DNA of 64,000 nt from Pristiophorus japonicus. Lineage: Eukaryota. This document shows positions 6,523-64,000 of the stretch, in pieces. Positions within the stretch are counted from its first letter, which is position 1. Every line of letters starts with the position of its first letter. The stretch covers positions 375,286,001 through 375,350,000 of the forward strand of contig NC_091978.1 of the NCBI RefSeq assembly GCF_044704955.1. Direction: 5' to 3'. The position numbers and the translations under genes were made by a program. The notes under the pieces are model-generated. The model did not search any database. It saw only the letters and a program-made list of their open reading frames with translations, and was not told the origin of the DNA.

Positions 6523-6644
6523 GTGAGTATTACAAAGCTTTTCGTTTGCTTCTCTGTTGCAATGAATCCTGAGACTGGAGGCTTTCGTGTGGTGGGAAAA
6601 TGGCACAATGAGCTACCGTGGAACATTTGAAGTTTAGTCCTCTG

Positions 6645-22600: not shown

Positions 22601-22607
22601 GCCTCTT

Positions 22608-27400: not shown

Positions 27401-27404
27401 CTTA

Positions 27405-28545: not shown

Positions 28546-28549
28546 CATC

Positions 28550-32286: not shown

Positions 32287-32439
32287 AAGCGTCGCAGAGG
32301 ACGGAGAAACCGGCGTTGCAGGAGGAAAAAAGGTTCAAAAGCAAAAAGCCGGGGTCGGGGGAGACGTGGTCGGAAGGGAAGAAGGAAATCTCATGGTTGG
32401 AGGCACGGATCGAGCTCTGAAACTGGTGCAGACAGATAG
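32287..32439 (+). CDS. spp2: Candidate last coding exon of the SPP2-like gene: cationic peptide KRRRGRRNRRCRRKKGSKAKSRGRGRRGRKGRRKSHGWRHGSSSETGADR*
   Basis: TTTGACTTAG acceptor (weak). Phase 0 matches the exon 4 donor. TAG at 32437-32439 and strong donor A|GTAAGT at 32486/7. Other frames are also open, so the frame is inferred. Confidence 0.6.
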   Translation, partial: KRRRGRRNRRCRRKKGSKAKSRGRGRRGRKGRRKSHGWRHGSSSETGADR

Positions 32440-32918
32440 ACAGATCGCAAGACTGAATGAACCGCAGAGAGTAAAACACAGATTCAGTAAGTATCACCAG
32501 AGATTATGTGTCACTTTTTGAAGAGTAAATTCTCCTTAATTTTGTCCCATTTCTGTGGTCGCAATATTGCATAGAATTACAACCTGTAAACAGGCCGTTG
32601 GACCCAGCTGGTCTGTGTTGGTGTGGATCCTCCAGCGAGTAATGGTCCTGATCCCATTTGCCGGCTCAGTTCCCAAATCCCACTATCCTGCTCTCCTTCA
32701 GCCTCCTATATAACCAACTAACCCATCCTCAAATGTTGATCAAGTCTATGGATTTGATTCTTCCTGTACTATTTTGATCTTGTATATTTCTGTAAGGCCA
32801 CCTCTCTGATGCCTCCTTTCAAAGCTGAAAAGCCCAAAGTTTTTCCTTATAACTCAGTTCTCTGACAACAGGATCAGACTCTTTATCTGAACTGCCTCAG
32901 GATTTGAATGTCTGCCTC

Positions 32919-33320
32919 GTGTCTCAGTGACCAGGGCTGGACACCGAACTCCAAGTGTGGTCTGACCAGTGTCTCAGTGACCAAGGCTGGACACAGTGCT
33001 CCAAGTGTGGTCTGACCAGTGTCTCAGTGACCAGGGCTGGACACAGTGTTCCAAGTGTGGTCTGACCAGTGTCTCAGTGACCAGGGCTGGACACAGTGCT
33101 CCAAGTGTGGTCTGACCAGTGTCTCAGTGACCAGGGCTGGACACAGTGCTCCAATTGTGGTCTGACCAGTGTCTCAGTGACCAGGGCTGGACACCGAACT
33201 CCAAGTGTGGTCTGACCAGTATCTCAATGACCAGGGCTGGACACAGTGCTCCAAGTGTGGTCTGACCAGTGTCTCAGTGACCAGGGCTGGACACAGTGCT
33301 CCAAGTGTGGTCTGACCAGT
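32919..33320. repeat. 50-bp tandem repeat x8 derived from an old CR1 RT segment
   Basis: Units start at 32919, 32969 ... 33269. Minus strand reads LVRPHLEHCVQPW, the CR1 LVRPHLEYC motif. Confidence 0.9.
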
Positions 33321-34976: not shown

Positions 34977-35651
34977 TGTTGTAGAGAGTAGAAATATATA
35001 TAGACTTAGGCATTAGGCACCTGCTGGATATTTAAAACTCACATAAGCTTAAATGGACACACACATAAAATGGCTGCCCAGGCATTATGGGAAATCAGGT
35101 AGTCAAACTGTGAACTGTTGAACGTTCACTGACCGAGCAATAACCCTGTGAGGCCCACTGTAGGAATGCCTGGGAAGACAGAGATAAGAAGGAAACCATC
35201 TCCTGTGAACAAGGCCATGAAACCAATTATTTCAGGAAGAAAGATAAGAGGGAAACCATTTGCTGTAAACAAGGCTATATACCAATTATTTCTCCCAGAT
35301 GAAAGAACTAGGGAGAGAACCTATAAAGCCATCGATCAGCCCAAGCTGACAATAACCGAACATATGGTTCCCTGGATAGTAGGAGAATTCTATTGGATTA
35401 AAGAACCTATATGTAATCTATAATCGTTGTGATTGGCTTGTGTCCAGCCGTGATGGGCTGTGTAACTGTAGTAAACTGTTTTGTAACTGTTGTGAAACAT
35501 ATAAAGGTGCATGTAACTCTTTGTTCTGTGAAGAGAAACCTGGATACGGTCCTGAGTTTTTCCTTCCCGCTGAGCGTAATAAAAGCTGCTTCAGCATTGG
35601 AACCGACCCTGAGTGTTGAGTGATTCTTCTAAGAAAACACTAACGCTAACA
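34977..35651 (+). repeat. 5' LTR of env-only provirus
   Basis: TG...CA ends, CATATAAAA TATA-like box at ~35498, AATAAA at ~35578. Confidence 0.95.
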
Positions 35652-38235
35652 ATGGCGTAGTCGACGGGATTTCCCGGAGTCGCTGGACGCCCTTGGAAAA
35701 AAAACCCGGGTGAGTATAAAAAACTATTTTTAAGTATAAAGGGTGCGGAAGGTGGAAGCTGGTTGATCGACATGAGGAGACGGTCTAATATCTCAAACGC
35801 CTAGCCTGAGCCTGAATTAAGAGGACTTTTGTCCCACGTGACGGCCAGGAACCAAGTAGGCGTAGGGAACACACTTAGACCGTGGGATCGTGATACCGAG
35901 AGACATCTTCCGGACTCAGTAGTGTAATTTGAAATACCCCGGGATAGAACCAAGCGGTGTACAGCGGCTAACGGAATCCAAACCTGTGAACAGGGTCGGA
36001 CCAACAGGCTGAGCGGTGGTAGGTAGTCGTTAAGGATACGTAGAGCACTGCGGGAATTGCTTAAACGCGTTTTTAAGAATTGTATAAGTTTGTGCAACAG
36101 CAGAACTTGTGACCTGACAGTAGCCAAGAGACAGTTTACTACAAGTCGCGCTAGAAAGAAAGCGGACCTCTGAGAGTAGATTCCTAACGGTAGTAGTCCT
36201 ACCCAGGAATGGCCATGAAAACAAGTAAACTCGAGTGGGGACCAGAAGGGTCGCTTACCCGCCACCTGGCGGAAAAACAAAAGAAGCTAATTGAAAAAAT
36301 GATTAAAGCAGGGTGGAATCCTCAGGAATTAGTTATGTGAGGAATTATTTAGATAAAACTACGAATTCCCTGAAAGGTCATGGATCCAAAAATAGAGCCG
36401 GCCAAAACAAGAAGAGAGACTGTTGTAAATGTCTGATCGTTGAGTGAGAAGTGTCTGTGTGATTTTTGACTGCAGAATGAATTTTTTATGTTTTCATGTT
36501 CCGAAAGCCTGGTTGGAAGAGGAATGCAAGTGTCTGTTTATTTTAGAAACAGAGTGAAAGTCTTTTTTTAAACCCTTTGTAATGTTGTCCTGTATGTGGG
36601 AAGTTTTAAGACATTTAAGTTAGAAACGCAGGTGTGGATTTATTCGGATGATAAGTTACGGAGCTAGGAAAATAAACAAATAAAGAATAGGTTTGTTGAG
36701 CAAAATATTTATTTGACATGCTCACTTACTTGCCGAAAGAAAACATGCAATGATTGATTGGGTTGAAAGACATAAATTTAGTCTCGGAATGAGATAAAGA
36801 ATGCTTTAAAAAAAAAGAGCTTCTAAAAAAAAAGTTTTAAATAAAGATTGAAATTACAACGTTTGAATTGGGATTTTGAGATATTCAGAGAAGGCACAGG
36901 AAATACTGAGGTGGATTTAAAAAAAAAGAGAAAGATTAAATTAAATCTGATCAGGTCAAACTCCTGGGCAAGTGGCGAGCTATCTGCGAAGGTGTAAAAG
37001 GAACTTTTGGAAAATGTTAAAAAACAGCAAGCTTTAGTAACGACTTTGAAACTGGAGCATTTTGAGATAACGAAAGGCAGCACTCAAACTCTCAAAGCTG
37101 GTCTCCATTCCAGTTATGGAGAAAAAGAAAAAGATAAAGACGCCACTTTGAAAGTAAACAAATGATTTTAAATTAACAACTTTATGGAGTTACGAACCCT
37201 CCGTGTAAAATACAAAACCTAATTTGAAGAAAGGAAAAAAAAAGATGTAACGGACTAAATGGAAAAAGACATAACTTACTAAATACTAGTTGATGTTTGC
37301 TGTGAAAAAGATATTGGTTTAATTAGAAGAGAAAAAAAAATTGGAATAAGTAAAAAAAACACTCTACATGGATTCGAATTTTCAATTATGAAAAAGTTTC
37401 AATGCAGTTTGAAAAGATTTCCAAAATGGACAGTGTTTATCAAAAATGTCCCGAACAGTCTAAACAAGCAGGAGGGTTTTGAAGATAACGAGGAGAAAGA
37501 GAGAAATTAAAAAAAAAACAGAATTGAATTTCAGTAAACAAAATTGCTATTGTATGTGTGGTCTTGTTTTAAAACAATTAAAAAAAAAAATTATTTGGCA
37601 AGTACTTGAATTAGAAGTTAAGAAAACATTGGAGTTTACTCTAATGATTTATGCTGTTTAACGGATTCCTAATTTCGAAGCCAGTTTTGAAGGCACAAAG
37701 ACTTTTTTTTCAGATGATTACGTGAAGTCACGTAATGACATCAGGTCTTCTTACAAACCTGGAAAGGAGTTAACCCTTTCCATTGACAGCCGTTTTATAC
37801 TGAACATTATTAATTTGGATTTCTTAATAGATATTCAATAAAACAAATTGAAGAGTTAAAAGCTAAGATAAACAGGCTGGAAGAGATAACGGGACTAGAC
37901 GGATAGTGCAGTGCGCAGCCATAGCACCATCACCTCTGGCAATAGAGCCAATGTACCCCACGGTGGGTAGGTGTAGTCCACAAACCCAACCTAACGGTAA
38001 AGCAGACAGCGATGTTTGGAGGAATAGCTTTGGCCTTGGTCATAATAGGAGTTTGGGTAATATTTAAGTGGGTAAAGACACGGGCGCACGCCCTACAGAT
38101 TCAGCTCGAAATGGTTCGATTATAACCTTGTCCTTCTGATTTTGCAGGGTGACAGGGACACTCGTAGAGCAAAAAAACTTAACCCCTGGTGACGACCAGG
38201 CCGTCTGTTTAAAATTACAGATAATACTTACCGGA

Positions 38236-40363
38236 ATGGGAATACGAAAGGCGCTACTCGTAATATGGATAGCCCTGCGACATGCACGTACCCTGGGCAA
38301 CACCGACGGACAGCAGAGCACGCTGGAAATAAACAACTATATGAACTATGGAGTCTTGTTTAATTTAACGGACGGAATGTGCATCCCAGCAGCCAAGGAC
38401 TGGAGCAAGGACAGGACTTATTTTAATGCATGGTTACAAGTGAATCCTAATAAGAATCCTAATAAGAATAAGAGTATGTGTACAGTGCTCCACGGGTATA
38501 AGGAGCAGATGCATTAAACGGAGGGATGTCATAGGGCCTGATGAATGTACTTTCGGCATAATTTGCGCGCCTCCGGGACAATCCCAGCAATCAGTCATCC
38601 GCAAGAAGAGAATGGGGCTGTGTGGGTATTACGAGGAGGCGGGGGCGGCTGCAATATCATTGTATGTATGTTTCTCACCCCCTCCGACACCGCGCCCCAT
38701 AAGAATCACTACATTGCCCGAAGAACTGCCTTGTCCCATAACTACTAAGGGACCAGAAAATGGGATTGCAATGTACAACGAAGGGGAATTATTGTATGAT
38801 AATGTTAAACATGAAATTGTGCCTGTTCTGATCAATATTTCAGGCATCCAGATGCCGGAATATTGTACCGAACAGTCAAGGAAGATGTACAATGTATTAA
38901 GTAAAGTCGTAATGCAGCAGGCTGCCGATGCCATGGGTGCCAGTAAGTTCCGGGGACAGGGGTTAGCACCCAGGGTGAAGAGGGAAATAGTAAATGATGT
39001 TGCTACCGTTTTTAATACAGGAACCTCCGTAGTGAACTCGATAGACATACAAGGGCTAAATGAGAGGGTAGAACAGCTTAAAGGGGTGATGAAGGGGTTA
39101 TTGGAGAGGTTGGAGCAAAACCAGGAAGACCAGGCCAACCTAGGAAAGGAGGGTGCCGAAATCCAGTTGGATGGCATCTCAGTCCTGGAAGCTCACGCTA
39201 AAACCATCAATCACCTCATTGATAGAGAACAAGAAGATACAATAAAGCAAAGACAGGGGCAACTCTGTCATGCTTATGGTCTGTGGATGGTGGGACAGAT
39301 CCGCCACAACCTCGACCAGATCCAACGTGGGGAAGTACCCGATTGGATAGACAGTTCACATTTAGCTCAGTTGGCGAACCAAAGGGGGACACTGGATAAT
39401 TGTACTCTGAAGGGACTGACCCGAGTATACCCCGCAATTCCAGATTGCCAGATGGGTAGGACTACCGGGATAGGGATAGTCCTGTTGATCCCCATAGCAA
39501 CGCCGGACTCAGGGCCGTTCCCCTTATACCAACTAGAGAATATCGGAGTAATACGGGAAAATGTCTCCATACGCTACTACCTAACCACCACCTCTGCCGT
39601 TCGTCGAAACAACATACTTACTGGGATTTCCCTAGCAGATTGCAAGCAAAGGGGGGAAATCACAGTATGCCCTCACCCGGTGGGCCGAGGGGAACTAGAC
39701 GAGTGCGGGTTTAACCGAACCAACGGGTGTGTACTAGAAATAGTGCCCGCACACATGCACTTCGCGAGGGCAGGCTACGGAGGGAGGGGAAGATACTGCG
39801 TCTCTACTACTGAGCGTTCATACCAGTATAATGACCTACAGTGCCCTATACCGCAGCCAAACTTTTGCTTTACACCACTACGACCTGTCGCGATCGGGCA
39901 AGCGCATATCACCCAGGTTAGGCGCCGGAAGTCCAAAGTTATTGAAGTAACTGATCAGCTCCATGATCATTTGCAGGATTATGACGAGCCAGAGCAGGTC
40001 CCTATCCCACATCTAACCGAAGTATTACGGGAGTTGAGGCTCAGAGTGGGTCAATCTGTAAAACTCTATCACCAGCTACAAACTAAAATCAAAGAAGATA
40101 CCGAGGTAGACTTACAAAGTCAGAGTTGGTGGAGAAAGGTCTGGGACTGGGGAATAAATGTGAACATCCACCCATGGATCCGAATTATTTCACACACACT
40201 GGTCGGAATACAATTAATCTTAGCAATAACATGGGGCGTGATGGCCTGCCAGGTATGCAGGCGCCACAAATGGCGGAAACGGACTAATCACCGTTCCCTG
40301 GATATTAAACAGGCCTGTTTGATAAGGGGACGGGAGGAGCTAGCCTTTGTTAATTTGATTTAA
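38236..40363 (+). CDS. env: Envelope / class I fusion glycoprotein (F-like); N-terminal signal-peptide frame separated by one frameshift near 38440-38475
   Basis: MGIRKALLVIWIAL signal peptide at 38236. The main frame is open from ~38444 to 40363, with furin site RVKR, fusion-peptide-like EIVNDVATVFNTGTSVV, a heptad repeat, a Cys-rich ectodomain, Trp-rich WWRKVWDW and a TM segment. Confidence 0.85.
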
Positions 40364-40502
40364 GCAACCGGAACTCCTGAAACCGCGTGACTGGCCAGCA
40401 CGTTGAGGCAAGGAGTACCGGGCAGTGCACAAATATCAGATAAAGGCAGTACGGTCGGTTAAAAGGGGACTAGGACTAGTCCCTTTACCGAAAGGGGGGA
40501 AT

Positions 40503-41177
40503 TGTTGTAGAGAGTAGAAATATATATAGACTTAGGCATTAGGCACCTGCTGGATATTTAAAACTCACATAAGCTTAAATGGACACACACATAAAATGGC
40601 TGCCCAGGCATTATGGGAAATCAGGTAGTCAAACTGTGAACTGTTGAACGTTCACTGACCGAGCAATAACCCTGTGAGGCCCACTGTAGGAATGCCTGGG
40701 AAGACAGAGATAAGAAGGAAACCATCTCCTGTGAACAAGGCCATGAAACCAATTATTTCAGGAAGAAAGATAAGAGGGAAACCATTTGCTGTAAACAAGG
40801 CTATATACCAATTATTTCTCCCAGATGAAAGAACTAGGGAGAGAACCTATAAAGCCATCGATCAGCCCAAGCTGACAATAACCGAACATATGGTTCCCTG
40901 GATAGTAGGAGAATTCTATTGGATTAAAGAACCTATATGTAATCTATAATCGTTCTGATTGGCTTGTGTCCAGCCGTGATGGGCTGTGTAACTGTAGTAA
41001 ACTGTTTTGTAACTGTTGTGAAACATATAAAGGTACATGTAACTCTTTGTTCTGTGAAGAGAAACCTGGATACGGTCCTGAGTTTTTCCTTCCCGCTGAG
41101 CGTATTAAAAGCTGCTTCAGCATTGGAACCGACCCTGAGTGTTGAGTGATTCTTCTAAGAAAACACTAACGCTAACA
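40503..41177 (+). repeat. 3' LTR of env-only provirus
   Basis: Near-identical to 34977-35651; the poly(A) signal reads ATTAAA here. Confidence 0.95.
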
Positions 41178-44117: not shown

Positions 44118-44710
44118 TGTCTATCTCTCTCTCTGCCCCCCCTCTCTCTCTCTCCCACCCTCGCCTCTCTCTCTCTCTCTCTCTGTCCCAACCCCACCTC
44201 TCTCTCTCTCTTCTCTCTCCCCACCCCTCCCCACATCTTTCTTTCTCCCCCCCCGTATCTCTCTCTCCCACCCTCCCGTGTCTCTCTCTCTCCACCCCGT
44301 GTCTCTCGCTCTCTCTCCCCAGCCCCCAGTCCTCTCTCTCACTCCCTCCCACCCCCCCCTGTCTCTCTCTATCTCTCTCTCCCCACAGCCCCTCTCCCCC
44401 GTCTCTCTCTCTCTCTCCCACCCCCCCCCTTGTCTCTCTCTATCTCCCCCCCGTGTCTCTCTCTCTCTCACCCCCTGTCTCTCTCTCTCTCTTTCCCCCA
44501 TCTCTCTCTCTCCCCACCCCCCACATCTCTCTCTCTCTCCCCCTCTGCCTCTCTCTCTCTCTCCACACCCCCCACTTCTCCCTCTCTCTCTCCACACCCC
44601 CACTTCTCCCTCTCTCTCTCTCTCCACACCCCCCACATCGCTCTCTCTCTCTCCCCACCCCCTCCACATCTCTCTCTGTCGCTCTCTCTCCTCACCCCCC
44701 CCACATCTCT
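44118..44710. repeat. CT-rich low-complexity tract
   Basis: (CT)n and poly-C mosaic next to the assembly gap. Confidence 0.95.
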
Positions 44711-44960
44711 NNNNNNNNNNNNNNNNNNNNNNNNNNNNNNNNNNNNNNNNNNNNNNNNNNNNNNNNNNNNNNNNNNNNNNNNNNNNNNNNNNNNNNNNNN
44801 NNNNNNNNNNNNNNNNNNNNNNNNNNNNNNNNNNNNNNNNNNNNNNNNNNNNNNNNNNNNNNNNNNNNNNNNNNNNNNNNNNNNNNNNNNNNNNNNNNNN
44901 NNNNNNNNNNNNNNNNNNNNNNNNNNNNNNNNNNNNNNNNNNNNNNNNNNNNNNNNNNNN
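44711..44960. other. Assembly gap (250 N)
   Basis: Run of N. Confidence 1.
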
Positions 44961-46232: not shown

Positions 46233-47381
46233 TCAACAGATAATCGAAAGAAGAATAGCAGATGGATCAGAAAAGTCCCAGGGCCTCCACTGAAGTTCTT
46301 TTTTAAATTGGCACTTAGAAAGACCTGGGATGTGGGCGTTGCTGGCAAGGCCGGCATTTATTGCCCATCCCTAATTGCCCCTTGAGAAGGTGGTGGTAAG
46401 CTGCCTTCTTGAACCGCTGCAGTCCGTGTGGTGAAGATGCTCCCACAGTGCTGTTAGGGAGGGAGTTCCAGGATTGTGACCCAGCGACGATGAAGGAACG
46501 GCCGATATATTTCCCAGTCGGGATGGTGTGTGACTGGGAGGGGAACGTGGAGGTGGTGGTGTTCCCATGCGCCTGCTGCCCTTGTCCTTCTAGGTGGTAG
46601 AGGTCGTGGGATTGGGAGGTGCTGCCGAAGAAGCCTTGGCGAGTTGCTGCAGTGCATCTTGTAGATGGTGCACACTGCAGCCACGGTGCGCCGGTGGTGG
46701 AGGGAGTGAGTGTTGAAGGTGGTGGATGGGATGCTGATAGAGAATTCAAACAGGCTGCATTTAGACAGGCTGCGAAAATTCACAGACCCCAAATCAAAGC
46801 TACTACGTGCAGTTCAGCATGTGGCATTAAGTCATCAATCAACTTGACATTTCAGGACCTTGGGTAGCGAGCCAATTAAAAGGTTAAAAGACCATTAATT
46901 TAGCCAATAAGGTCAAAGAAGGTGAGTTCTTTTCTGTAAATTGAACCCGGTATAAATATAGCCATTTTAGCCATGTGGTCCCAGAAGGACAAAGGCCTGG
47001 CTTAAAGCCAAGAGCTTGTTACTGCTGCCAAAATAAAGTGACATTAAAACTACAATCGGAGTTCGTATTTCATTGGAAATCAAGAGATCTAACAATTTTG
47101 GCATCACGAACATGATTGCTGAGGAAAGAAACTGAATTTTGGACATCGGACCTACATACTGAGGTAAGGACTCCTCTTTATAAAAGTCCTCGGTCAAAAG
47201 TCTAAATTCACCTCTCCTTCTACGTGATTCCGAAAACCTCCGGTTTGCGAACCCTCCAGTTGGTAGTCGGCTCGAGGTCCCATAGACGTCTAACTTCGGC
47301 GGTGTGTTAGTTAATTAATCACCGACCTATTGATCGGCTGGAAAGTCTACGACTCGAGACCCCAGTAAAGAAATCAGTATT

Positions 47382-48938
47382 ATGGCAGCAGGAGATAAGA
47401 GCAAAGAATTGCCTACAACTGTTAAAGGTGGGCAGGCACCACCTGAGGTTTCGATCGATGAAATCCTCCAACAGTTGAAAGGATACATAGAGCAACAATT
47501 CAACTTATCTAAAACCTGTATTAAGATCGAACAAAAATATGGTATCTCCAAAGGACAATGGTCCTTGGACGAGATTAAAAGGGTCTGGGGAAAAACGACC
47601 CGTATGAAAAATAAAGAGCGAACTAGATGGTCCCTAGCGGTTATGGGCCAGATTCGAAACCAGAATGAAATTATAATGCGTTCCCAACATGATCGAGAAC
47701 TGACCAGTATAAAGGATCAATTGCAAGCTGTTTGTGCACAGCTGCGACAGAAAAAGCTTGAACTTGAAAAGCTGGAAGCGGAAGTTAAAGATCTTAAAGG
47801 TATAATTAAAGAATGAAAAAAATCATAAGGTCAAGAGACATTAATAGGAAAAGGAAAATGTATCGATCGGTCAATTCCCAGGGTACCCATGTTTGGATAA
47901 ATTAAAAGCGCAAACCCGAAGACACGACCGAGGAATAGATCCGGATTCTCAACCCGACGACGATACAGGGTCGGAGGATGATGAAGAATTAGGGGTGCGC
48001 TTTGCCCCGTTAAAAAAAAGACGAGTTGTAGTCAAATCAGAAGAGACTGCGGATGAGGGCGGAACCAAAAAAACAAAGAAAAGGCTGTATGAAAAATACT
48101 TAGTTCATGATCCGGCAGACCCAGAGAAAATTGATAAATGGTCCAAGGAGTTGCCCAATCCAAAGAAAGGGGGAGTAAAAACGTGGGACCAATTGGACCG
48201 CTTAAGAAATATATATCAACTTCATCCCTGGGACGGAGTGCAAATTTTGACCATAATGGTGCCAAAAACACAGGGAAGAAAATTGCACGACAAGGTAGAT
48301 GAAGCTTTGGGGCAGAATGAGCAAGAATTAGACGCAGGATGGGAGGCGATTAAACACTGGCTGCAAGCCTTCAGTCCAGCTAAGACAGACTGGGGAAAAA
48401 TTGCAGCCTGCTAACAGAAAGGAACAGAGGAGGTCCTGGAGTATGGCGAGCGGTTTAGATGCACGTGGCTAGAACATTCGGGTATGAATAATACAGATGA
48501 GGAAATGGATGAACAAGTGTTTGGACCCCTGAAAGCAGCTTTCGTGGCAGAACTGTTAAAATGCTTAAGGTAGTGTTACCGGACTGGGAAGGTAGAGGAA
48601 CTACCTTTGCAGCATTGGTGGATCGATGTAACCAATTAGATCGGAATATGGGGGCTAAAGTCCGAGCTGTACAGGCTATGGGATGGAAATCCCAGGATTC
48701 CGATAAACAGTTATTAGGAAAATTACCCGGAAAATGTCATTATTGTGGGAAAGAAGGTCACTGGGCCAAGACGTGCAGGGCAAAACAGCAAGGTCACGGC
48801 CAGGGAAGAGGACGCAGTCAGGGATACAATTCAGCCAACAAACCAGGCTTGTCACAAGATAACGACCTCATAGAAGCATTTAAGCGACTGACAATACAAA
48901 AACATAAGGAGTTACTTGGGATAGCAAAAGACGATTAG
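47382..48938 (+). pseudogene. gag: gag (disrupted): coiled-coil N-terminal part, capsid (YQLHPWDG), CCHC zinc knuckle
   Basis: ORFs 47382-47816, 47893-48414 and 48561-48938 with CHYCGKEGHWAKTC; stops and frameshifts between them. Confidence 0.88.
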
Positions 48939-49983
48939 AGCCCACCCTGGCCCCCCTCCTCGCACTAATACAACAAAGGGGAGATGGGCTATATATATAA
49001 CTGTGAGGGTGGGCGATAAGGATGTGGACTGTCTTTTAGACACGGGCGGAATTAACATGCTTACCCCTACAATATGGAGACTTTTTGCCGTTGGATGGTA
49101 GGGCACGTACAGCCTATGGAGTTGGGGGCCATAAAATGGAAATTAAAAGGACAATACCAGTACTTATAGGGCTGGGTCCACATGAATTCAGCAATTGGAG
49201 AAACAAGGGGTGCTTATTAAAACGCACAGCTCCTCCAATAGCCCCGTGTGGCCGGTACAGAAATCTAATGAGACTTGGCGTTTGACTGTCGATTATAGGA
49301 GAGCTAACCAGTGTATTGATCAAAAAGCTCCTTTGGTCGCAGATCCCTCCACCATTTTTAACGCCCTCAAACCGGAACATAAATATTTCTCGGTTATAGA
49401 TATGGCCAATGGATTTTGGTCGGTGCCTCTGGCACCGGAGGTTCGACAGTGGTTTGCTTTCACGGTCCAAGGACAACAGTATACTTGGACCCGGTTACCG
49501 CAGGGTTTCCACAACAGCCCTACGGTATTCCACATGGCTTTACAAAGCCATTTGCGAGAATTACCTCCCCTGTCATCCACAGTCATCCAATATGTAGACG
49601 ATATCCTGCTAGCTTCAAACACGGAAGAACAGCATGAACAAGATTTATGAGCTTTGCTGGACCACCTTTGGCTGAAAGGACATAAAGCCAGCATCGACAA
49701 AGCACAAATATCCCAAGAAGAGGTTGTATACCTGGGACAAAAGATTTCACGAGGAAAGAGAGAATTTACCCAGGATAGAACTGCAGCCATTCGGGCTGCT
49801 AAAAAACCCACCACTATTCAGGAACTAAGGTCCTTTTTGGGATTGTGTAACTTTAACAGAAATTGGATTGACTCCTTCACACAGCTTGCTCAGCCATTGA
49901 ATGATATCTTAAAGGGGAAACGTGCCTCTAAAGAAGCCATCACCCTCACTAAGGAACAGCAAGAGGCCTTCCTGAGTTTGAAA

Positions 49984-52032
49984 CATAGAAACATAGGGCC
50001 CAAGTTTCCACATGATTTGTGCCTGATTTTTAGGAGCAACTGGTGGAGAACGGACTATCTTAGAAATCGCAATTCTCCACATTTTTTTTTCTGCAGTTCT
50101 AGTGAGGTAGAACAGTTCTACTTTAGAACAGAATTTTTTCTTCAAAAGGGGGCGTGTCCGGCCACTGACGCCTGATTTCAAAGTTTCCACAGTGAAAACG
50201 TAATCCAAACTAAAGTAGAATGGAGCAAGTGAAGATTTTTGTAGAGCTGAAAAAACCTGTTCTACACATTAAAAAATCAGGTGCAGGTTACAAATTAGGC
50301 GTCCAGAACGAGGTGGGGGGGGAAGGGGAGTCATTAAATTCTATAATCAATCCTTATTTATACTTCCACAAATATTATACAAATAAATCCAACCTGAATA
50401 AACATCTATAAGCAAAGAAAAGATTAAATAAACCATCTTCCTACCTGTGTGAAAGTGCTTCAGCCATCGTTCGTTCCCGCAGGGGGTGGGGAAGGAGACC
50501 GCCGTTTGTTGCCGCAGAGGGGAGGGAGGGGAAGGAAACCGCCGTTTGTTGCCGCGGAGGGGAGGGAGGGGAAGGAGACAGTGGTTTGTTGCCGCGGAGG
50601 GGAGGGAGGGGAAGGAGACAGCGGCTTGTTGCCGTGGAGGGTGGGGAAGGGAAGGAGACAGCGGCTTGTTGCCGCGGAGGGGAGGGAGGGGAAGGAGACA
50701 GCGGCTTGTTGCCGCGGAGGGTGGGGAGGGGAAGGAGACAGCGGCTTGTTGCCGCGGAGGGGAGGGAGGGGAAGGAGACAGCGGCTTGTTGCCGCGGAGG
50801 GGAGGGAGGGGAAGGAGACAGCGGCTTGTTGCCGTGTAGGGTGGGGAAGGGAAGGAGACAGTGGCTTGTTGCCGCGGAGGGGAGGGAGGGGAAGGAGACA
50901 GCGGCTTGTTGCCGCGGAGGGGAGGGAGGGGGAGGAAACCGCCGTTTGTTGCCGTGGAGGGTGGGGAGGGGAAGGAGACAGTGAGAAGGGTAGCCTCAGT
51001 GCTGATGTGCTGATGGCAACGTGCTTTTATTAAAAAATTAAACAGCTACAAAGAACTACAAAAATGGCCGAGTGCCAATGTTTCCTTCACACTGAGCATG
51101 TGCGAACGCTCCAACGCGCACGCGCAGCGTTGCTGGCAGGAAAAAAACTAATTTAAATAGTACCCGCTCCCTCCCACTTACAAAATCGGCGCGAGTGTAG
51201 GCTCCGCCCCCCCTGGGCGCCGCACCAAACAGACAAGGAGCTGCAAAGCGCTCGAGAATAGCGTGTTTTTTTTCTGGCGCCGTTTTAGGCGCGAAAAACG
51301 GGCGCCCAGCTCGGAAGGGCGCCTGTTTTTTATCGTGTGGAAACTTGGGCCCATAGAAACATAGAAAATAGGTACGGGAGTAGGCCATTCGGCCCTTCTA
51401 GCCTGCACCGCCATTCAATAAGTTCATGGCTGAACATGCAACTTCAGTACCCCATTCCTGCTTTCTCGCCATACCCCTTGATCCCCCGAGTAGTAAGGAC
51501 TTCATCTAACTCCTTTTTGAATATATTTAGTGAATTGGCCTCAACAACTTTCTGTGGTAGAGAATTCCACAGGTTCACCACTCTCTGGGTGAAGAAGTTC
51601 CTCCTCATCTCGGTCCTAAATGGCTTACCCCTTATCCTTAGACTGTGTCCCCTGGTTCTGGACTTCCCCAACATTGGGAACATTCTTCCTGCATCTAACC
51701 TGTCTAACCCCGTCAGAATTTTAAATGTTTCTATGAGGTCCCCTCTCATTCTTCTGAACTCCCTGAATACAAGCCCAGTTGATCCAGTCTTTCTTGATAG
51801 GTCAGTCCCGCCATCCCGGGAATCAGTCTGGTGAACCTTCGCTGCACTCCCTCAATTGCAAGAATGTCCTTTCTTAAGTTAGGAGACCAAAACTGTACAC
51901 AATACTCCAGGTGTGGCCTCACCAAGGCCCTGTACAACTGTAGCAACACCTCCCTGCCCCTGTACTCAAATCCCCTCGCTATGAAGGCCAACATGCCATT
52001 TGCTTTCTTAACCGCCTGCTGTACCTGCATGC
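49984..52032 (-). mobile_element. CR1 3' fragment inserted in pol, with the MITE inside its tail
   Basis: CATAGAAA tail on both sides of the MITE; RT C-terminus at 51444-52030; pol reads FLSLK before and KALCSAP after. Confidence 0.9.
49996..51352. mobile_element. Non-autonomous DNA transposon (PIF/Harbinger-like MITE) containing a 40-bp minisatellite
   Basis: 21-bp TIR GGGCCCAAGTTTCCACA(T/C)GAT, 3-bp TSD ATA, internal 40-bp repeat GGGGAAGGAGACAGCGGCTTGTTGCCGCGGAGGGGAGGGA at ~50480-50980. Confidence 0.88.
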
Positions 52033-54129
52033 ATGAAAAAGGCTTTGTGTTCGGCACCGGCTCTGGGAATCCCCGACAGTGGTAAGCCATTTACCCTGTT
52101 TGTTCATGAGAAAGAAGGATATATGACAGCTATACTGACACAAGAACATGAGGATCGGCAAAGACCTATTGGCTATTATTCAGCAAAACTGGATGCGGTA
52201 GTCCTCGGATGGGGAAGTTGCCTAAGGGCCATGGAAGCTGCATGTCGAGCGGTAATGATCACTGCGGGTCTAGTCCTCGACCAAAAGCTGATTGTCAAGT
52301 GTTCCCACACCGTACACGCTTTGCTGTCTATGAATAGAATGTCTCAGGTGACAGCAGCAAGATGGACCCGCTGGACAGCAGTTTTGGAAGCTCCTAATCT
52401 CCATATCGTCCGGGCCAGCCCGGTTAATCCCGCAACTATGCTCCCGATGTCAGAATCGAGGGAGCAAGAGGGGGGAGAATGTGAAGAGCATGACTGCGTG
52501 GAGATTTTAAAAGAAACAGAAGAAGCAGTCTTAGCAGCAGAGGAGCCTCTGCACAACTCAGACCTCATCCTGTTTACAGATGGTTCCTCCTTTGTTGACA
52601 ATGGTACCAGAAAAGCAGGATGGGCAGTTACAACCTTATATGAGGTAGTGGCAAAAGTACGTTTACCCTCAGGAACGTCAGCACAACAGGCCGAGTTATG
52701 GGCCCTGTCAGAAGCATGTCGAATAGCAGAAGGACAGACAGCTAATGTCTACACAGATTCGCGTTATGCTTTTGGAGTCGCTCACGACTTTGGTATGTTA
52801 TGGCGGAAAAGAGGATTCCTCACTGCTGCTGGTACACCTATCCGAAATGGAAAAGAAGTCCGAGATTTACTAGAGGCCATACAATTACCTCAGGAAGTGT
52901 CCATCCTGAAGTGTAAGGTCCATACCAAGGAAAATACCACAGAAGCACAGGGAAATGCCCTAGCCGACCAGGCAGCGAAAGATGCCGCCTCACAGGGCGT
53001 TCCTCCAGAAGAACCAACACAGATGTGCAGATTGAAAGCACTCAGGACTCTGACACGAGACCTTCAAACAATGCAAGGCGAGTGCTCCCGAGAGGAAAAA
53101 TGGACATGGATTGAGGCAGGAATTAAGCTATGCGAAGATGGTGTCTGGAGACAAAGAGTTACCGACAAGCCAGTCGCGCCACAAGCGCTTATGCCTTTTT
53201 TAGCCCAACAGATCCACTCGTGGGGACACTTGGACTCACAACAGATGACAGCACAGTTCCAGAAAAGCTGGTGGGGTTGGGGATTTAAAAAACATGCCCA
53301 GCTGGTAACAGACCGCTGTGTGGTCTGCTCGAAAAATAATTCTGGACCCATCACGGTAATGCCCCAACTGAGGCCCCCTGCCCCTGTCGGACCATTCCAG
53401 CATCTGCAGGTTGATTATATATCTCTTCCTTCATGCCAACGATAAATTTGTGTGGAAGCTACTAGTCCGGACATGTGGCGAAACACATCAACAAATTTTA
53501 GAAGGAAACTCTATTAACATGTATGAAATTATTTTGTAGAATGTTTAACAAGTGATACCTGATGTTTTATGATTCAGTTTGTGAAAGAATCAAAGGGGGG
53601 ATTGATAGAGAATTCATACAGACTGCATTTAGACAGGCTGTGAAAATTCACAGACCCCAAGTCAAAGCTGCTACGTGCAGTTAAGCATGTTGCATTAAGT
53701 CATCAATCAACTTGACATTTTAGGACCTTGGGTAGCGAGTCAATTAAAAGGTTAAAAGACTATTAATTGAGCCAATAAGGTCAAAGAAGGTGAGTTCTTT
53801 TCTGTAAATTGAACCCGGTATAAATACAGCCATTTAAGCCATGTGGTCCCAGAAGGACAAAGGCCTGGCTGCAAGCCAAGAGCTTGTTACTGCTGCCAAA
53901 ATAAAGTGACATTAAAACTACAATCGGAGTTCGTATTTCATTGGAAATCAAGAGATCTAACAGATGCCGATCAAGTGGCTGCTTTGTCCTGGATGGTGTC
54001 GAGCTTCTCGAGTGTTGTTGGAGGTGCAACTCATCCAGGCAAGTGGAGAGTATTCCATCACACTCCTGAGTTGTGCCTTGTAGATGGTGGGAAGGCTTTG
54101 GGGAATTCAGGGGGTGTGACACTCAGATC

Positions 54130-57186: not shown

Positions 57187-57328
57187 AAGAGAGGGACCCC
57201 AACTGACTTACCGATCCGAACTTCCATCCTTTATCTGGCGGTGTCCCTGCTGCGATGGTGCAGCCCAACACTCCGCTTCTGTGCTGGGCTGTGACTGCGC
57301 CACCCCGCATCTCCGATGGTGACGTCTA

Positions 57329-57687
57329 GGTCCCTCATCCCACTGCAGGGCTCGCAGTGTCCCCTCCCCTTTAACGGGGGAGGTCCCTCGTCCCACTGCA
57401 GGGCTCGCAGTGTCCCCTCCCCTTTAACGGGGGTGGTCCCTCGCCCCACTGCAGGGCTCGCAGTGTCCCCTCCCCTTTAACGGGGTGGTCCCTCGCCCCA
57501 CTGCAGGGCTCGCAGTGTCCCCTCCCCTTTAACGGGGGAGGTCCCTCGTCCCACTGCAGGGCTCGCAGTGTCCCCTCCCCTTTAACGGGGGAGGTCCCTC
57601 GTCCCACTGCAGGACTCGCAGTGTCCCCTCCCCTTTAACGGGGGAGGTCCCTCGCCCCACCACAGGGCTCGCAGTGTCCCCTCCCCT
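57329..57687. repeat. 53-bp minisatellite, ~6.7 copies
   Basis: GGTCCCTCGTCCCACTGCAGGGCTCGCAGTGTCCCCTCCCCTTTAACGGGGGA repeated. Confidence 0.92.
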
Positions 57688-58126
57688 GTAAAGAGGAGGT
57701 GGGCTCTGAGCTTGCATCAGTGCTACGTGGAGATGTAGAAGCGGGAATCTCCTGCAATGCACAGATGTTGGGGACTGGATTGCAGGACATTCCCCCTTCT
57801 CATCTCCATACTTAAATAACATTCCTGCTTCCCCTATGTGGGGCTTCCAGCCCCATCGACTCAGAGGCAAATGCCAAATTCATGTCAATGGGCAGAATTT
57901 CTGAGCCTTTCCTGCGTTACTGGAACAATGGTCTTTCCTGTAACGGTCTCAACTAAGTTCCCTTAAGACTCTCGATGCCATCAATAACTTGCATTGATAG
58001 ACCTTTAATGTAGAAATCTGATCCAAGGCACTTCACAGATGCCTGAGCAAAATGGATGAGGAGCTGAAAAGGAGGTATTGGAAGGCTTAAGCAAAAACCT
58101 GCTAAACACTGGGGTTTAAAGGAAGA

Positions 58127-61100
58127 TGTTGTGTCAGCAAGCATTCTAGTAATGACTCCACAAGGTAAGGTATTGCACTTGAACTGTTGGGACCTTACTC
58201 CATTTATTGCAGCTCCTGAGTAAGGGTACAGTAAGGTGAGCAACCTTTTATACCTGGTTACCTGCAGTGTGCAGGTGACCCCTAGGTCTCCACCAGTTGC
58301 ATCCTCTGGTGGTACAGGCATAGTGTATATAGTGTAAAGATACATTCATTGGTCTTATGTAACTGTACATTGGGTGTACAGGGTATATATATATATAAAC
58401 AACATCACTCCCCCCCTAAGTCTTGTGCAACTGGGCTTTGCACTGTGTGCTCTGGCCCTCGACTTGAGTGCCCAAAGCCCTTGCAGTTTGTCTGAGTTTG
58501 GGAATGGCTCTCCCCCTGTGGACCCCCAAGTCCTTATTGCCACAACATTGGGAAATGGTCAGCAGTGGATGGTTGGAGGTTGCAGTGGGGGTTGCATGGG
58601 TTCTGGATGTGATCCATGTGTGTCCATGGCTACATACATCCATTTCACCCCCCCATACATAGACCATGTGTGTGGCTCGACATTTGCACTTACATACATG
58701 TACAGAGAATGAAAAATAAAAGTAGGATTGGTTGCATGACTATTTGGGTTTAGCAGTAGTGGAATAATTATATGTTACAGGTAAGGTACATATGTGGTAA
58801 CACAGTCTTGCCCCTGGGGTGTAGGTGCAGGTGGGTGAGCACGCTAGTTCCAGAGTAACCAGACTGTGTCCAGGTTGTCTGATGGCGCCGCTGTGCCCCC
58901 TGCCAGCTGGGTGGGCTCGGTTGCTCCCTTGGCTGGGTCTCGGGGCCTTTTCCATTGTCTAGTGGTGGGCAGAGCCACAGGAATGTGTGGCCTTCCTGTC
59001 CTCATTTGAGAGGTGCAGTGTCTCCCTGCTGCGATGGTTGGAGCTTGGTCATCCCAGGTCCCATCGAGAGGGCTGGAGGGTGCTGGCCTCTTGCTCCCGG
59101 TGCTGGCCCTGGTGGCCAGAGAGGTAGGGCCAATCTGGGGCAGGGTACCGGTAGTGGTGCCTGTGCCATCCGCTGATCGCTGGCCCTACAGTGGGTATGC
59201 TCCCACTGTGTGTGGCCACACTCCCTGGGGCATCACATTGGTCCCGGAGGTGCAGGCTACATGACCGGGTAGCCCGCTGGACCTGGGTGCTTCAAATGGG
59301 AGGTTGCCCTTGGTTTTGTCAGCGTGCATATTGAACCCGGCATCAGACATTATTCCATCGTTTACATTCATGATCCATTGGCTCCGATCGCTCTCAGGTA
59401 CTAGTTCACATTTGTCAATTACATCTTTTCCCTCAATTTTCCATGTATATTACCGGCATCGCTGCACAATGTTACATTTAGATACTTGTATTCATAAATT
59501 ACATATTTTCCACGTATCCGATGGGCATCGCTGTTCAACGGTACGTTTAGATACTTGTATTTGTTAATTATATCTCTCACATTAGTATCACTGGCATCAC
59601 TGTACAAAAAGTGGAACAGTCCCTTTAATTGTTTTGGGTTGCCGGTCCCCTTTAAGAGGGCCTTGCAATCTTTACCCCAATCCGGTTCGCTGCTCAGCAT
59701 CACATGTTGCTCCCTCAACGCTGCTCCTCGTGGTCTGGTCGTGGTCATCTTGATTTCAGGCGCTTCACCACGTGGTGCGGGCACCATCTTTTCTCTCTCC
59801 ACGAGGTAAGCTGTGGTGATCCTTTTCTCCCCAGGTTCTGCTACTGTAGCCGGGGATTTACCTTCTGCATCGATCTTCTCCCTTCGGAGCCCTGCCACGG
59901 CCCAGAAGGTGAGGTCTGGTCGTTCGGGTTGGATCATCTCGCCGTTGAGTAGTGTGGTCTGTGTCGTTGCCGCGCAGTCGAGTTGGATGGTCTTCAGGTA
60001 CTGCGATGGATCCAAATTTTGGACCGCATAGGACGTCGATCGCTGGGGCCTGGAGGCTTTCCCAACTCCAACAAATTTGGATTTGCTTCATCGATCTTCT
60101 TCCTAGCAGCGTTGGACCATCACCAGCAACGATCCACAAGGGTAGCTTGTGCATCACGCCACCGTAGGACACCTGGACATCCACACTGCCAACGACTGGG
60201 ATGGTGTCATTTGTGTAAGTGAGCAGCTTCACCTGAATCAATATCATTCTGGGTTGTACGATAGGATTGTCCCAGAGTATCTCGAAGGCCGTCTGGTTCA
60301 TCAGCGATTGGCTCGCCCCTGTGTCGACCTCCATCGAGACTGGAACACCATTGATTTCAACTTCCATTTTCAGTGGGGAACTCTCGGTGGAGCAGGTAAA
60401 CACTCCGTCCACCTCTTCCTGAGGCAGAGCTGCCTCCTGGACTCTCTCTTCGTCTTCATCAGCACTGGAGCCCGGGTGATCGACCAACTCTTCAGCGACT
60501 CGGTGAGTAAAGTTTCTTTTACACATTTGCTGTAGATGGCCTTTAGTGTTACAGCCTTTGCAAGTATAGTCTCGGTATCGGCACTGGTGAGCTCTGCGAT
60601 TTTCTCCACATCGCCAGCATGGGGCTGGCTGGTTGGCCACCTGCGGCGGACTCAGGGTTGCGGGGCTCGGGGTCGCAGTCTTGGCTCTGAAGGGCACCAG
60701 TCGGATCACTGTACTTGCCATGTTAGAGTCCTGGGGTTTAGTCATCATCCTTCTGGAATCGCAGGCCGAGGCCATGAACACTTGGCTCATACTAATTGCC
60801 TTCTGCAGGGTGATGGTGGTGTCTGCAGAGAACAGCCTGTGGAGGATACCTTTGTGGCCAAGTCCAATAACAAAGATGTCCCTCAGTGCTTTGGTGAGGT
60901 GGTCGCCAAAATCACACGGTGCAGCCAATCATCTCAGGTCTGCAGCATATTTTGTGATTTCTTGGCCTTCGGACCGTCGGTGGCTGCAGAACCGGTGTCT
61001 GGCTGTGAGGATGCTCTCTTTTGGCTTGAGCTGTTCCTGTATCAACTTTACGAGCTCCGTGTACGTTTAGGTTGTCATCTTCTCTGGGGCTAGCAAGTCC

Positions 61101-61582
61101 CTGACAAGACCATGGACAGTGGGCCCACAACTGCTGAGCAGGATAGCTCTGCGCTTGTCAGCCAGCGAGGTCGGTGTGTCTCCTGCCAGGTCGTTTGCGA
61201 TGAAGTAGTGTTCTAGTCTTTCCACAAAGGCATCCCAATCTTCCGCATCAGTGAATTGTTGAAAGGTGCCAAGGTTAGCCATTTTTCACGTGGAAATTCG
61301 TAATCTCATCGCCAGTTGTTGCATCTGTAAGCACTCTAGTAATATGGTAAGGTATTGCACTTGAACTGTTGGGACCTTCGTCCATTTAATGCAGCTACTG
61401 AATGAGGTTACAGTAAGGTGAGCTCCCTTTTATACCTGGTTACCTGCAGTGTGCAGGTAACCTCTCGGTCTCCACCAGTTGCACCCTCTTGTGTTGCAGG
61501 CATATTGTATACAGTGTAAAGATACATTTATTGGTCTTATGTAACTGTACATTAAGTGTACAAGGTATATACATACACAACA
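58127..61582 (-). mobile_element. Gypsy (Mag-like) LTR retrotransposon, deletion derivative with gag and protease only
   Basis: LTRs 58127-58404 and 61317-61582, TSD GAAGA, PBS TGGCGATGAG, PPT at ~58405-58417. gag MANLGTFQQF..DWDAFVERLE with tandem zinc knuckles and protease VDTGAS; no RT or IN seen. Confidence 0.9.
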
Positions 61583-61899
61583 GAAGACAGGGAAGTGGAG
61601 AGGCTGAGCAGTTTAGGGGGGAAATCTCAGAGGGTGGGGTGGGGATGGCTGAAGATATTGCTGCCAATGGTGAGGTGAAGGGACGGAGACAGGTGTAGCT
61701 TATAGCAGACAAGCAACTAGCAGGTTTTCAGACTATTCCTGAGCTTGATTCTAGGATAGGAATCTGAGCTGTAACACTTCTGTTGCTCCACAGTGAAACA
61801 TGCATTGACCAATACGTTCCAGGTCTCTGAGTTCATTTATTTAATTTGTAAATTCACCACTTCTTTATTCCATTGCAGTTCATCATAATTAATTTGCAA

Positions 61900-62500
61900 G
61901 GTTCCCAATATACCATTTTCAGTTGCTTCATCAATGACCTTCCCTCCATCATAAGGTCAGAAGTGGTGATGTCCGCTGATGATTGCAGTGTTCAGTTTCA
62001 CAACTCCTCAGATAATGGAGCAGTCCGTGCCCGCATGCAGCAAGACCTGGACAACATTCAGGCTTGGGCTGATAAGTGGCAAGTAACATTCTGGCCACAC
62101 AAGTGCCAGGCAATGACTATCTCCAAGAAACGAGAGTCTAACCACTGCCCCTTGACATCCAATGGCATTCCCGTCGCCGAGTCCCCTACCATCAATATCC
62201 TGGGAGTCACCATTGACCAGAAACTTAACTGGACCAGCCACATAAATACTCTGGCAACAAGAGCAGGTCAGAGGCTGGCTGGCTTGATGTCTCACCTCCT
62301 GACTCCCCAAAGCTTTTCCACAATCTACAAGGCACAAGTCAGTGATGGAATTCTCTGCACTTGCCTGGATGAGTGTAGCTCCAACAACACTCAAGACGCT
62401 CGACACCATCCGGGACAAAGCAGCCCGCGTAATTTGTATCCCATCCACCACCTTAAACATTCACTCCCTCCATCACTGATGTACAGTGGCTGCAGTTTCT
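61900..62500 (+). mobile_element. CR1/L2-group LINE fragment
   Basis: FINDLP..SADD, ILGVTIDQKLNW motifs in ORF 61873-62517. Confidence 0.8.
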
Positions 62501-62537
62501 TTTCTGTAACCGTCTAAACCAAATTCCTTTAAGACTC

Positions 62538-63200
62538 GAGGGATACAAATTGCCTAGTGCCCTGTTTGGGGCGATAACATTTGCGGGAGCACAGAAGTAT
62601 TGCTGGGCGCTACACAATTCAATCTGGTGCAAACTTCCAGTTTAGCACACCAGGAGGGAAATGGATCGCTAAATGAAGCGCTACTGTTTCCCTTGGAGCA
62701 CTAAACGGAGCAAGAGGGGCTGTAGTGGCAGAGCGTGGCCAATGTTGAGGGCAGCGTTGCCGGATTCACAGGTTCCTGCTCTCACTGAAAGGGAAGGGTC
62801 AACGCTGAGCTCATTTCAAGCTAAGGCTGGGAATGGTCGATGACGGCACTTGTGATCAGCGAAGTGCCGCCACAAGCAGTCTAAGAAAATGCAGGGCTGA
62901 TCAATCGCGGCCTGGAAAACAATGAAAACACGTCAGTATGGGGACAATTTTAAATCAATGCTGCAGGGGGCGGAAGCCAATTTTATAACCAGGGCGATAA
63001 CGCGTCGCTATGCGATGATGTCACGATCTCCGGGGTGTAGAGATTGCGGCGGTAAGTTTTAGCGCCATCACTAACCTGCCATGCAAGTTCGCGGGTGTCA
63101 GTACTCTCACTGCGCTAGGTCGGCATGCTGTGAGCGCCCCATTATCACCCCCCCCAGAGGCGCTAACAGGAAGCGCAAAGGAGGCCAATTTCTCCCCCTC
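62538..63200. mobile_element. Probable MITE with imperfect TIRs; partial paralogue at ~3200-3588
   Basis: GAGGGATACAAATTGCCT ... AGGCCAATTTCTCCCCCTC; CpG-rich interior. Confidence 0.5.
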
Positions 63201-63654
63201 GAAGTCAAGGAAGTGGAGAGGGAGAGGAATTTAGGGAGGGAACTCCAGAGAATGGGACCGGGTGGCTGAAGGTACTGCTGCCAATGGTGAGGTGAAGGGA
63301 CGGGACAGGTGTCGGTTACAGCAGGCAAGCAGCAGACCGGTTTTCGGACCATTCCGGAGCTTGTAAGAATTCTGTTGCCACACACTGAAATATCTAGTGA
63401 CCCAGCAGTGAGCGATAGGTTCCAGGTCTCTGAGTTCATTTATTGATATTTAAAATTCACCACTTCTTTATTCCATTGCATTTCATCATAATTAATTTGC
63501 AAAGTCCTTAAAATAGTTAGCAGCATGATGTGTCCTGATGGTGAAACAGGAAACGGACACACCTCACTCCTTACAAACACATTGCAACACTCAGCAATAC
63601 ACTTGGACAACATGTAACCAACTCCTGGGAAGTTTGCAGGGGACTGAATGCAGT

Positions 63655-63740
63655 GGAGTCGGTGCAGTGATTGGTCAGTTTACAACATTAGTTATAATTT
63701 GCCCTCCGGCCTTGCGTGCTCTGAAGTATATAACCATTGA
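63655..63740 (+). promoter_or_regulatory. Promoter of SPP2-like gene copy 2
   Basis: TATATAA at 63727-63733 and ATTGG at ~63670; the second ATTGG of copy 1 reads ATTAG here. Confidence 0.6.
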
Positions 63741-63796
63741 ACAGAACCAGTCAATAGACAGAGGTAGAAGTGTCCTCCACCGATCCAGATGACAAG

Positions 63797-63848
63797 ATGA
63801 AAATCATTCTCTTCATTCTTGCTGCAGCCCGGATCCTCCGCTGTTCTG
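63797..63848 (+). CDS. spp2: SPP2-like gene copy 2, exon 1 (MKIILFILAAARILRCS-G)
   Basis: One substitution (V to A) relative to copy 1; same G|GCAAGT donor. Confidence 0.8.
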
Positions 63849-63954
63849 GCAAGTATTGAAGGGCGCTGTGGGATGATTGGAGCAAGAGCTGTTGTTCTGA
63901 TCATCAGTTGGTCTTGTCCCAATGTTACTTAAACCTCTTTGCTTTTTGGTTCAG

Positions 63955-64000
63955 GAATACCGTGTGAAGCTTCTACCCGACCAGAGGTTCCACCAGCACT
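63955..64000 (+). CDS. spp2: SPP2-like gene copy 2, exon 2 (partial, runs off window)
   Basis: Same acceptor; GIPCEASTRPEVPPAL; offset exactly 59604 bp from 4351. Confidence 0.8.

Follow-up and report, generated by a model that had tools for sequence, protein, structure and literature searches.

A stretch of 64,000 nucleotides from the sawshark Pristiophorus japonicus (NC_091978.1, positions 375,286,001 to 375,350,000; hereafter the window) carries on its forward strand one complete gene related to SPP2 (Spp24), termed copy A, and the beginning of a second, copy B. Copy A was modelled as five coding exons (4193-4244, 4351-4475, 6400-6522, 13702-19872 and 32287-32439) with an open frame of 2,207 amino acids (aa) and a single terminal stop, specifying in order a putative signal peptide, then a cystatin-like domain, a threonine-rich linker, a serine cluster with SxE motifs and a basic tail. 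The coding part of exon 1 (4193-4244) encodes the putative signal peptide, which was assigned from its alignment with relatives and which contains two arginines; the exon ends at a GC donor (4245), with the junction as in a public protein of the same species (P0001, secreted phosphoprotein 24-like). An upstream ATG at 4185 was rejected as the start, as an in-frame stop follows it. A TATA-like motif lies at 4114-4122, where a promoter role is putative, and a contig discussed below (contig 25 of sequencing run X5) starts further upstream, at 3975. Exon 2 (4351-4475) encodes the first part of the cystatin-like domain and matches one public protein, P0001, at 100% (E 6e-18 with a profile built from relatives), while exon 3 (6400-6522) was placed by alignment and by the same profile (E 3e-11). 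Among the four domain cysteines, Cys81, Cys105 and Cys123 are kept and the second carries Tyr92 in place of the conserved SPP2 cysteine, a derived loss in copy A. Copy B comprises the coding part of exon 1 (63797-63848), again with a GC donor and with a single change (Val11 to Ala), and the first 46 nt of exon 2 (63955-64000), cut by the window end. When all six frames of the window were searched with the relatives' profile, SPP2-like exons were found at these two loci only, with four exons in A (E 6e-18 to 2e-6) and two in B (E 2e-7, and E 0.023 for the truncated exon 2). No other match was better than E 0.49. Intron 1 (4245-4350 and 63849-63954) is of the GC-AG type in A and B alike, and its sequence does not differ between the two.

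The fourth exon of copy A (13702-19872; 6,171 nt, 2,057 codons) holds the end of the cystatin-like domain, a threonine-rich repeat and the Ser/SxE cluster. It was defined by a 2,069-codon open frame, AG and GT ends in phase 0 and a profile match (E 2e-6); its start carries the last part of the domain including two cysteines, such that a profile made from relatives only covers positions 1-124 of 126 when exon 4 is included (143 bits) and 1-101 when it is left out (111 bits). Most of the exon is an 18-bp minisatellite (13790-19803; Tandem Repeats Finder and unit counts) of 337 copies, coding mostly for D/A-A-P/I-T-T-T. The resulting linker of 2,017 aa (50% Thr, 14% Pro) compares with 17-102 aa in the nine relatives measured and 2-5 aa in bony-vertebrate SPP2; eight shark and ray proteins lacking a Ser cluster, together with P0019 and P0001 (mis-parsed), were left out of this measurement. 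In a further relative, P0013, the repeat was judged by eye at about 200 aa, and the longest family protein found has 413 aa. Three SxE motifs (residues 2146, 2149 and 2152) fall within the Ser run, and the Ser clusters of relatives match 19834-19902.

The last coding exon (exon 5, 32287-32486, stop at 32437-32439, donor 47 nt past the stop) encodes a tail of which the final 50 aa include 18 Arg and 7 Lys (isoelectric point 12, net charge +23), and a furin-type motif is formed at the exon 4/5 junction. The tail is the end of P0001, and the tail of an epaulette-shark protein (P0032) matches 32296-32394 (E 7e-6). Other frames for this exon were rejected, only the phase-0 acceptors at 32287 and 32290 giving the basic tail that matches P0001 and P0032, and a search with the tails of 10 relatives found no further coding exon downstream. 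The donor at 32487 suggests a non-coding last exon, and polyadenylation hexamers occur at 33971, 34243, 34378 and 34506. P0001 itself corresponds exactly to exons 1, 2, 3 and 5, with exon 4 skipped. Copy A contains a 6-kb coding repeat that was missed by annotation and that is about 20 times longer than in the measured relatives; if translated, it would show that automatic annotation can omit an exon that completes a domain and holds the phosphorylation sites. The white-shark and cloudy-catshark models P0002 and P0005 leave family sequence right after exon 3 and may hide unannotated repeat exons of their own.

An exhaustive search of the 50% library returned 22 proteins at E<=0.001, namely P0001, 17 shark and ray records, three bony-vertebrate-type SPP2 proteins (two named as bowfin and gar, the third being P0020) and an outlier of 5,670 aa, which clusters with sponge records and was excluded from later analyses. 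Spp-24 was the best Pfam match in 14 of the 17 shark and ray records, exceeding the curated cut-off in 10 of them. A word-indexed search with P0001 returned only that protein among 62 candidates, and a profile search gave 65 proteins, mostly bony-vertebrate SPP2, with no labelled spp2.1 to spp2.3 among them. Furthermore, a profile made from bony-vertebrate SPP2 alone matched the full copy A model at E 4e-24 over positions 1-125 of 127, and in structure comparison the first two Atlas rows were SPP24 clusters, with TM-scores of 0.60 and 0.59 that lie below the naming bar. The SPP2-like identity and the chondrichthyan source proposed in the original prediction are supported. Bony-vertebrate SPP2 (PF07448) shares with copy A the cystatin-like domain, the Ser/SxE cluster and the basic end; it differs in being single copy, in its short linker, in its 22-31% identity to A over the domain, and in lacking the extra cysteine pair (residues 21 and 55 of A) that is present in many shark relatives.

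According to the available text of a 2026 study (PMC13188829), all elasmobranchs examined there possess tandem spp2 clusters with four clades and recent species-specific duplicates, including one catshark cluster of 11 spp2 genes and, in the sevengill shark, as many as seven genes of the spp2.Like type. In a 29-row tree, copy A fell within a 13-row branch (96/92) together with the catshark protein XP_038664201.1, which Table S14 of that study lists as spp2.L3, and the shark and ray rows all stood apart from the 10 bony-vertebrate rows (100/100); the tree contained no labelled spp2.1-2.3, L1 or L2 rows. Copies A and B therefore most likely belong to the spp2.Like clade of the elasmobranch spp2 tandem cluster. 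They resemble the published spp2.Like genes in being tandem duplicates, and catshark spp2.L2 is described there as having a PTST-type repeat and an Arg-rich tail; it shares with copy A a signal peptide (putative in A), the cystatin-like domain, a Thr/Pro repeat ahead of a Ser-rich region and the Arg-rich end. The differences lie in the length of the linker, in the repeat unit (D/A-A-P-T-T-T rather than PTST) and in the missing second conserved cysteine. The duplication is accordingly a known expansion of a known family, to which the window adds one species. A lineage-expanded family whose members differ in repeat length and basic tail had also been foreseen in the original prediction; this is supported and is already in print in the same study, although in its accessible supplements the sawshark appears once, for a TGF-beta protein, and not among the spp2 sequences.

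To what extent exon 4 is used was assessed from public sequencing contigs over 3300-13800, for which four of 24 runs were used, each with at least half of the sampled words and all from one sample (possibly that of the assembly itself); none of the listed runs is recorded as RNA or carries a tissue label. These four contain 71-72% of the sampled words from 3300-6600, and with no single-copy control, and with the tables of joints and loose ends taken up by LINE copies, their contigs are no guide to copy number. Run X5 includes a contig (contig 25; 643 nt, depth 51.5) that aligns to 3975-4243 and breaks off where exon 1 ends, and the same depth figure reappears in exon 2. The bin depths of X5 translate into 245, 123 and 44 covered bases against the 244, 123 and 44 expected for a spliced contig composed of exon 1, exon 2 and 13706-13749. 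If the contig also includes exon 3, which is masked by repeats in the table, 77 bases are left over, and 77 bases is also the overrun of DNA contig 24 of run X3 beyond 13749. This depth arithmetic, rather than any listed joint, indicates that a spliced form entering exon 4 exists. Since the X5 contig differs from A and reaches only 13749, expression of copy A itself and of its full repeat is not shown. The DNA contigs additionally contain a second version of intron 3 and the start of exon 4, with 9-10 differences in about 494 bases and at a depth of 8-12, as against 4-7 for the pieces identical to A.

Taken together, we consider it quite probable that the window contains one complete and one cut-off member of an elasmobranch spp2 cluster, with the function proposed here and the origin set out further below. 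By analogy, and from what PMC13188829 discusses for the family, the product would be a secreted extracellular-matrix phosphoglycoprotein of the denticle and tooth epithelium, from which the signal peptide would be removed. Its cystatin-like head would serve as a non-inhibitory binding module, and the available text of PMC2784779 lists spp24 among the cystatin families that have lost protease inhibition. Thr/Pro repeats are a common target of O-glycosylation, and furin-type motifs are sites of proteolytic cleavage. The 2,017-aa linker would then be densely O-glycosylated and so take the form of an extended and hydrated brush. The Ser run, which includes three SxE motifs, would be phosphorylated by FAM20C and bind calcium phosphate, and the basic tail would bind either phosphate or polyanions, with possible cleavage at the furin-type motif. 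The most likely task of such a protein would be that of a mucin-like spacer anchored on forming mineral, limiting or patterning mineralisation at the epithelial surface. With respect to the site of action, the catshark spp2.Like genes are reported to peak in expression in denticles and dental lamina (PMC13188829, available text), while mammalian SPP2 is given there as liver-expressed.

The resemblance to mucins lies in the single giant tandem-repeat exon and its composition. The model has none of the domains by which mucins are commonly defined (vWF-D, CysD, SEA or a transmembrane part), and its repeat is flanked by SPP2 domains. That copy A is expressed whole, yielding from an SPP2 gene a 2,207-aa secreted mucin with a cystatin head, some 1,000 potential sites of O-glycosylation, phospho-Ser as its anchor to mineral and a polycationic tail open to cleavage, is a serious proposal that we put forward tentatively and hold at somewhat short of even chances. 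If correct, it would represent a new route to a mucin, by repeat expansion inside a mineralisation phosphoprotein, and could provide a coat or spacer of denticles, teeth or rostral spines. Translation of exon 4 would mean that a mineralisation phosphoprotein has become a mucin-sized glycoprotein, within the one spp2 clade that PMC13188829, in its available text, finds difficult to apprehend functionally. A literature search in which most subscription papers fell outside the coverage found no title on a mucin-sized SPP2.

Several observations weigh against this assignment and function. Neither P0001 nor any of the five single exons gave a Pfam match at E<=1; a tree without labelled spp2.1, spp2.2 and spp2.3 sequences cannot exclude those clades; and none of the flanking genes sh3bp4, arl4c, nme9, vps8 and cops8 was seen within the window, so far as synteny can be followed there. 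Residue 92 is a cysteine in nearly all aligned relatives and a tyrosine in A. The spliced X5 contig is not letter-identical to A (4434 C>A) and covers exon 4 over 13706-13749 only; it also lacks the 9-bp deletion of copy B, the DNA contigs are variant at 13703 and 13705, the contigs may be chimeric between copies, and the X5 contig is silent on repeat length. Additionally, isoform X2 of the basking shark (P0015) joins exon 3 to the tail in the manner of P0001, and when two catshark spp2.Like genes were probed in situ, neither teeth nor scales showed a signal (PMC13188829, available text). Every step of the mechanism, finally, is drawn by analogy.

The strongest rival is that copy A is a decaying duplicate whose exon 4, a minisatellite grown by neutral expansion, is skipped or unexpressed, and that the other version is the working gene. 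This would account for the loss of Cys92, for a public model (P0001) without exon 4, and for the non-A letters that the X5 contig has in common with the main DNA contigs in general; two of the resulting changes, Leu to Ile (4434) and Val-Ala to Ala-Thr (13702), are more like the relatives than copy A is. Moreover, the codons common in the repeat do not lie a single step from a stop, so the open frame is weak evidence of selection. Conversely, copy A retains every splice site, its Ser/SxE cluster, its tail and an unbroken frame over 6,624 nt, exons 1 and 2 agree with copy B at all residues but one, and skipping of exon 4 would cost two cysteines and the last 23 of the 124 matched profile positions. 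Exon-4 skipping may occur in nature, and decay is possible; on balance we regard it as doubtful beside the reading of copy A as a working cluster member.

Less probable still is a cathelicidin-like role, whereby the cystatin-like head would act as pro-piece and the last coding exon would supply a cationic peptide of antimicrobial activity, set free in skin mucus. Copy A does have in common with the cathelicidins (PF00666) a head of the cathelin type and a last coding exon that is cationic, the 50-aa Arg/Lys-rich tail occupies an exon of its own after the furin-type motif, and when solved structures were searched with the family profile the top three matches were cathelin domains (E 6e-7 to 2e-5). 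The catshark spp2.Like genes are, furthermore, epithelial in the available text of PMC13188829. As background, the available text of PMC2784779 scores cathelicidin as present in cartilaginous fishes. However, in copy A the phospho-Ser cluster and the long Thr linker intervene between head and tail, and among the relatives, on which this comparison was made in place of A, Spp-24 outscored Cathelicidins in every protein matching both, with only 1 of 17 passing the Cathelicidins cut-off. An Arg-rich end is an ordinary feature of SPP2 in the available text of PMC13188829, and the main text of a proteomic study of shark skin mucus (PMC10707392) does not contain 'spp2', 'phosphoprotein' or 'cathelicidin'. 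An antimicrobial role of this type is therefore considered unlikely.

The relationship between the two copies was examined by self-BLAST of the window, which revealed, far beyond chance, three blocks that A and B share, collinear and on one strand. The promoter-exon block (upstream region, exon 1, intron 1 and start of exon 2) lies at 3347-4396 in A and 62958-64000 in B (1,052 columns, 97.8%, E 0.0; 12/1,039 mismatches), the copy in B having a 9-bp deletion in the 5' untranslated region (4148-4156 in A). Block X pairs 196-573 with 57750-58126 (97.6%; 8/377 mismatches, the copy in B extending to 58127), and block Y pairs 571-893 with 61585-61912 (91.8%; 22/320 mismatches, counted against 61588-61912). 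In copy A block Y spans 574-969 and is an older relic duplicate of the region immediately upstream of exon 1 (62/362 mismatches to 3597-3977), and an older second copy of block X, found in A only, lies at 1265-1580 (mismatches 23/139 to 162-304 and 12/97 to 295-391). An exon-less duplicate of the upstream region (162-969 against 1265-1580 and 3597-3977), 12-17% diverged, thus lies upstream of both copies and is presumably the relic of an earlier round of duplication.

Divergence is unequal among the three blocks (chi-square p 4e-8). Between X and Y, copy B alone carries a long terminal repeat (LTR) retrotransposon on the reverse strand (58128-61582; 3,455 bp) with a 5-bp target duplication and a gag/protease frame, which we take to be Ty3/Gypsy-like. 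The insertion site is empty in A. Its LTRs differ at 30/265 sites, just two of these 30 differences being in CpG context, and the adjoining block X is far closer between the copies than the LTRs are to each other (p 2e-6). Since an insertion ought not to appear older than the divergence of the sequence on either side of it, it is probable either that homogenisation took place later in block X and in the promoter-exon block or that one copy is a chimera of unequal crossing-over. Faster evolution of LTRs may offer another account of the discrepancy, and, to be set against the reading proposed here, block Y does not differ significantly from the LTR divergence (p 0.08). As origin we propose repeated tandem duplication by unequal crossing-over, of which the older X/Y duplicate upstream of both copies would be a relic, followed by copy-specific insertion of transposable elements and then by gene conversion or re-shuffling that would have held block X and the promoter-exon block 1-2% apart and Y 7%.

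The alternative that A and B represent the haplotypes of a single gene, joined in error at an assembly gap, has in its favour that such a gap does lie between them (250 N at 44711-44960, after a TC-rich tract at 44120-44710), as the original prediction had noted, that the coding blocks are just 1.2% apart, and that at 3424 and 3935 letters of the A type occur beside those of the B type in one DNA sample (runs X1 and X3), as they would with alleles too; contig depth, moreover, yields no copy number. The divergence between A and B would be high for alleles. Against haplotypes stand the level of difference in block Y, the 3.45-kb element of B with its diverged LTRs at a site empty in A, and the intervals 894-3346 (A) and 61913-62957 (B), which have only a 67-bp piece in common; multi-copy spp2.Like clusters are, furthermore, the rule in relatives (PMC13188829, available text). 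The earlier argument from different old transposable-element content therefore stands, though it is not proof. The mosaic pattern suggests paralogs with gene conversion rather than haplotypes, which we judge improbable, slightly more so than the cathelicidin-like role. This mosaic divergence would constitute a small, clear case of sequence exchange within a cluster, and it advises caution with spp2 trees and copy counts.

The original prediction had further proposed that promoter, exon 1, intron 1 and exon 2 recur exactly 59,604 bp downstream, as members of a tandem array with a period of about 59.6 kb. The duplication is real, while the exact offset applies only from 4157 onward (end of the 5' untranslated region, exon 1, intron 1 and the first 46 nt of exon 2, which is cut in B); it is 59,613 for the TATA-like motif, 59,611 for the upstream part, 57,553-57,554 for block X and 61,014-61,019 for block Y. 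Within 57750-64000 (6,251 bases), no more than 1,746 bases can be aligned to copy A (28%, or 2.9% of 59,604), and about 70% of the interval between A and B is sequence that is repeated within the window or bounded by LTRs and has no counterpart. The distance from A to B is not a physical one because the 250-N placeholder lies inside it. A periodic array would comprise at least three units at constant spacing, whereas the window has two loci with offsets that vary by 3.5 kb; with two copies, varying offsets and a gap in between, array and period are therefore not shown. A regular array with a unit of about 59.6 kb is thus very improbable, for although the blocks keep their order and strand, and although more copies may exist in view of the variant of intron 3 and of the start of exon 4 in the DNA contigs, a period is undefinable from two copies whose spacing takes in the gap and much repeat sequence, including an element with LTRs differing at just 3/675 sites.

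That element (34977-41177, forward strand) is a young LTR element with 675-bp LTRs and a 639-codon open frame at 38444-40363, which we take to be an envelope gene from its look; the frame gave no Pfam match and no PDB match better than E 0.36, and the element has no other forward-strand frame of at least 150 aa, so no intact gag or pol. A second element on the same strand (46728-53962) is a broken retrovirus-like one with LTRs differing at 15/365 sites and pieces of reverse transcriptase, RNase H and an integrase zinc finger, interrupted by stops and by repeats inserted near 49980-52030. Intron 4 of copy A is filled at 20087-30580 by about 10 kb of stacked and nested long interspersed element fragments in both orientations. 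Finally, non-coding minisatellites are located at 4902-5062 (56-bp unit), 31587-31981 (50 bp), 32919-33320 (50 bp), 50484-50981 (40 bp) and 57328-57691 (53 bp).

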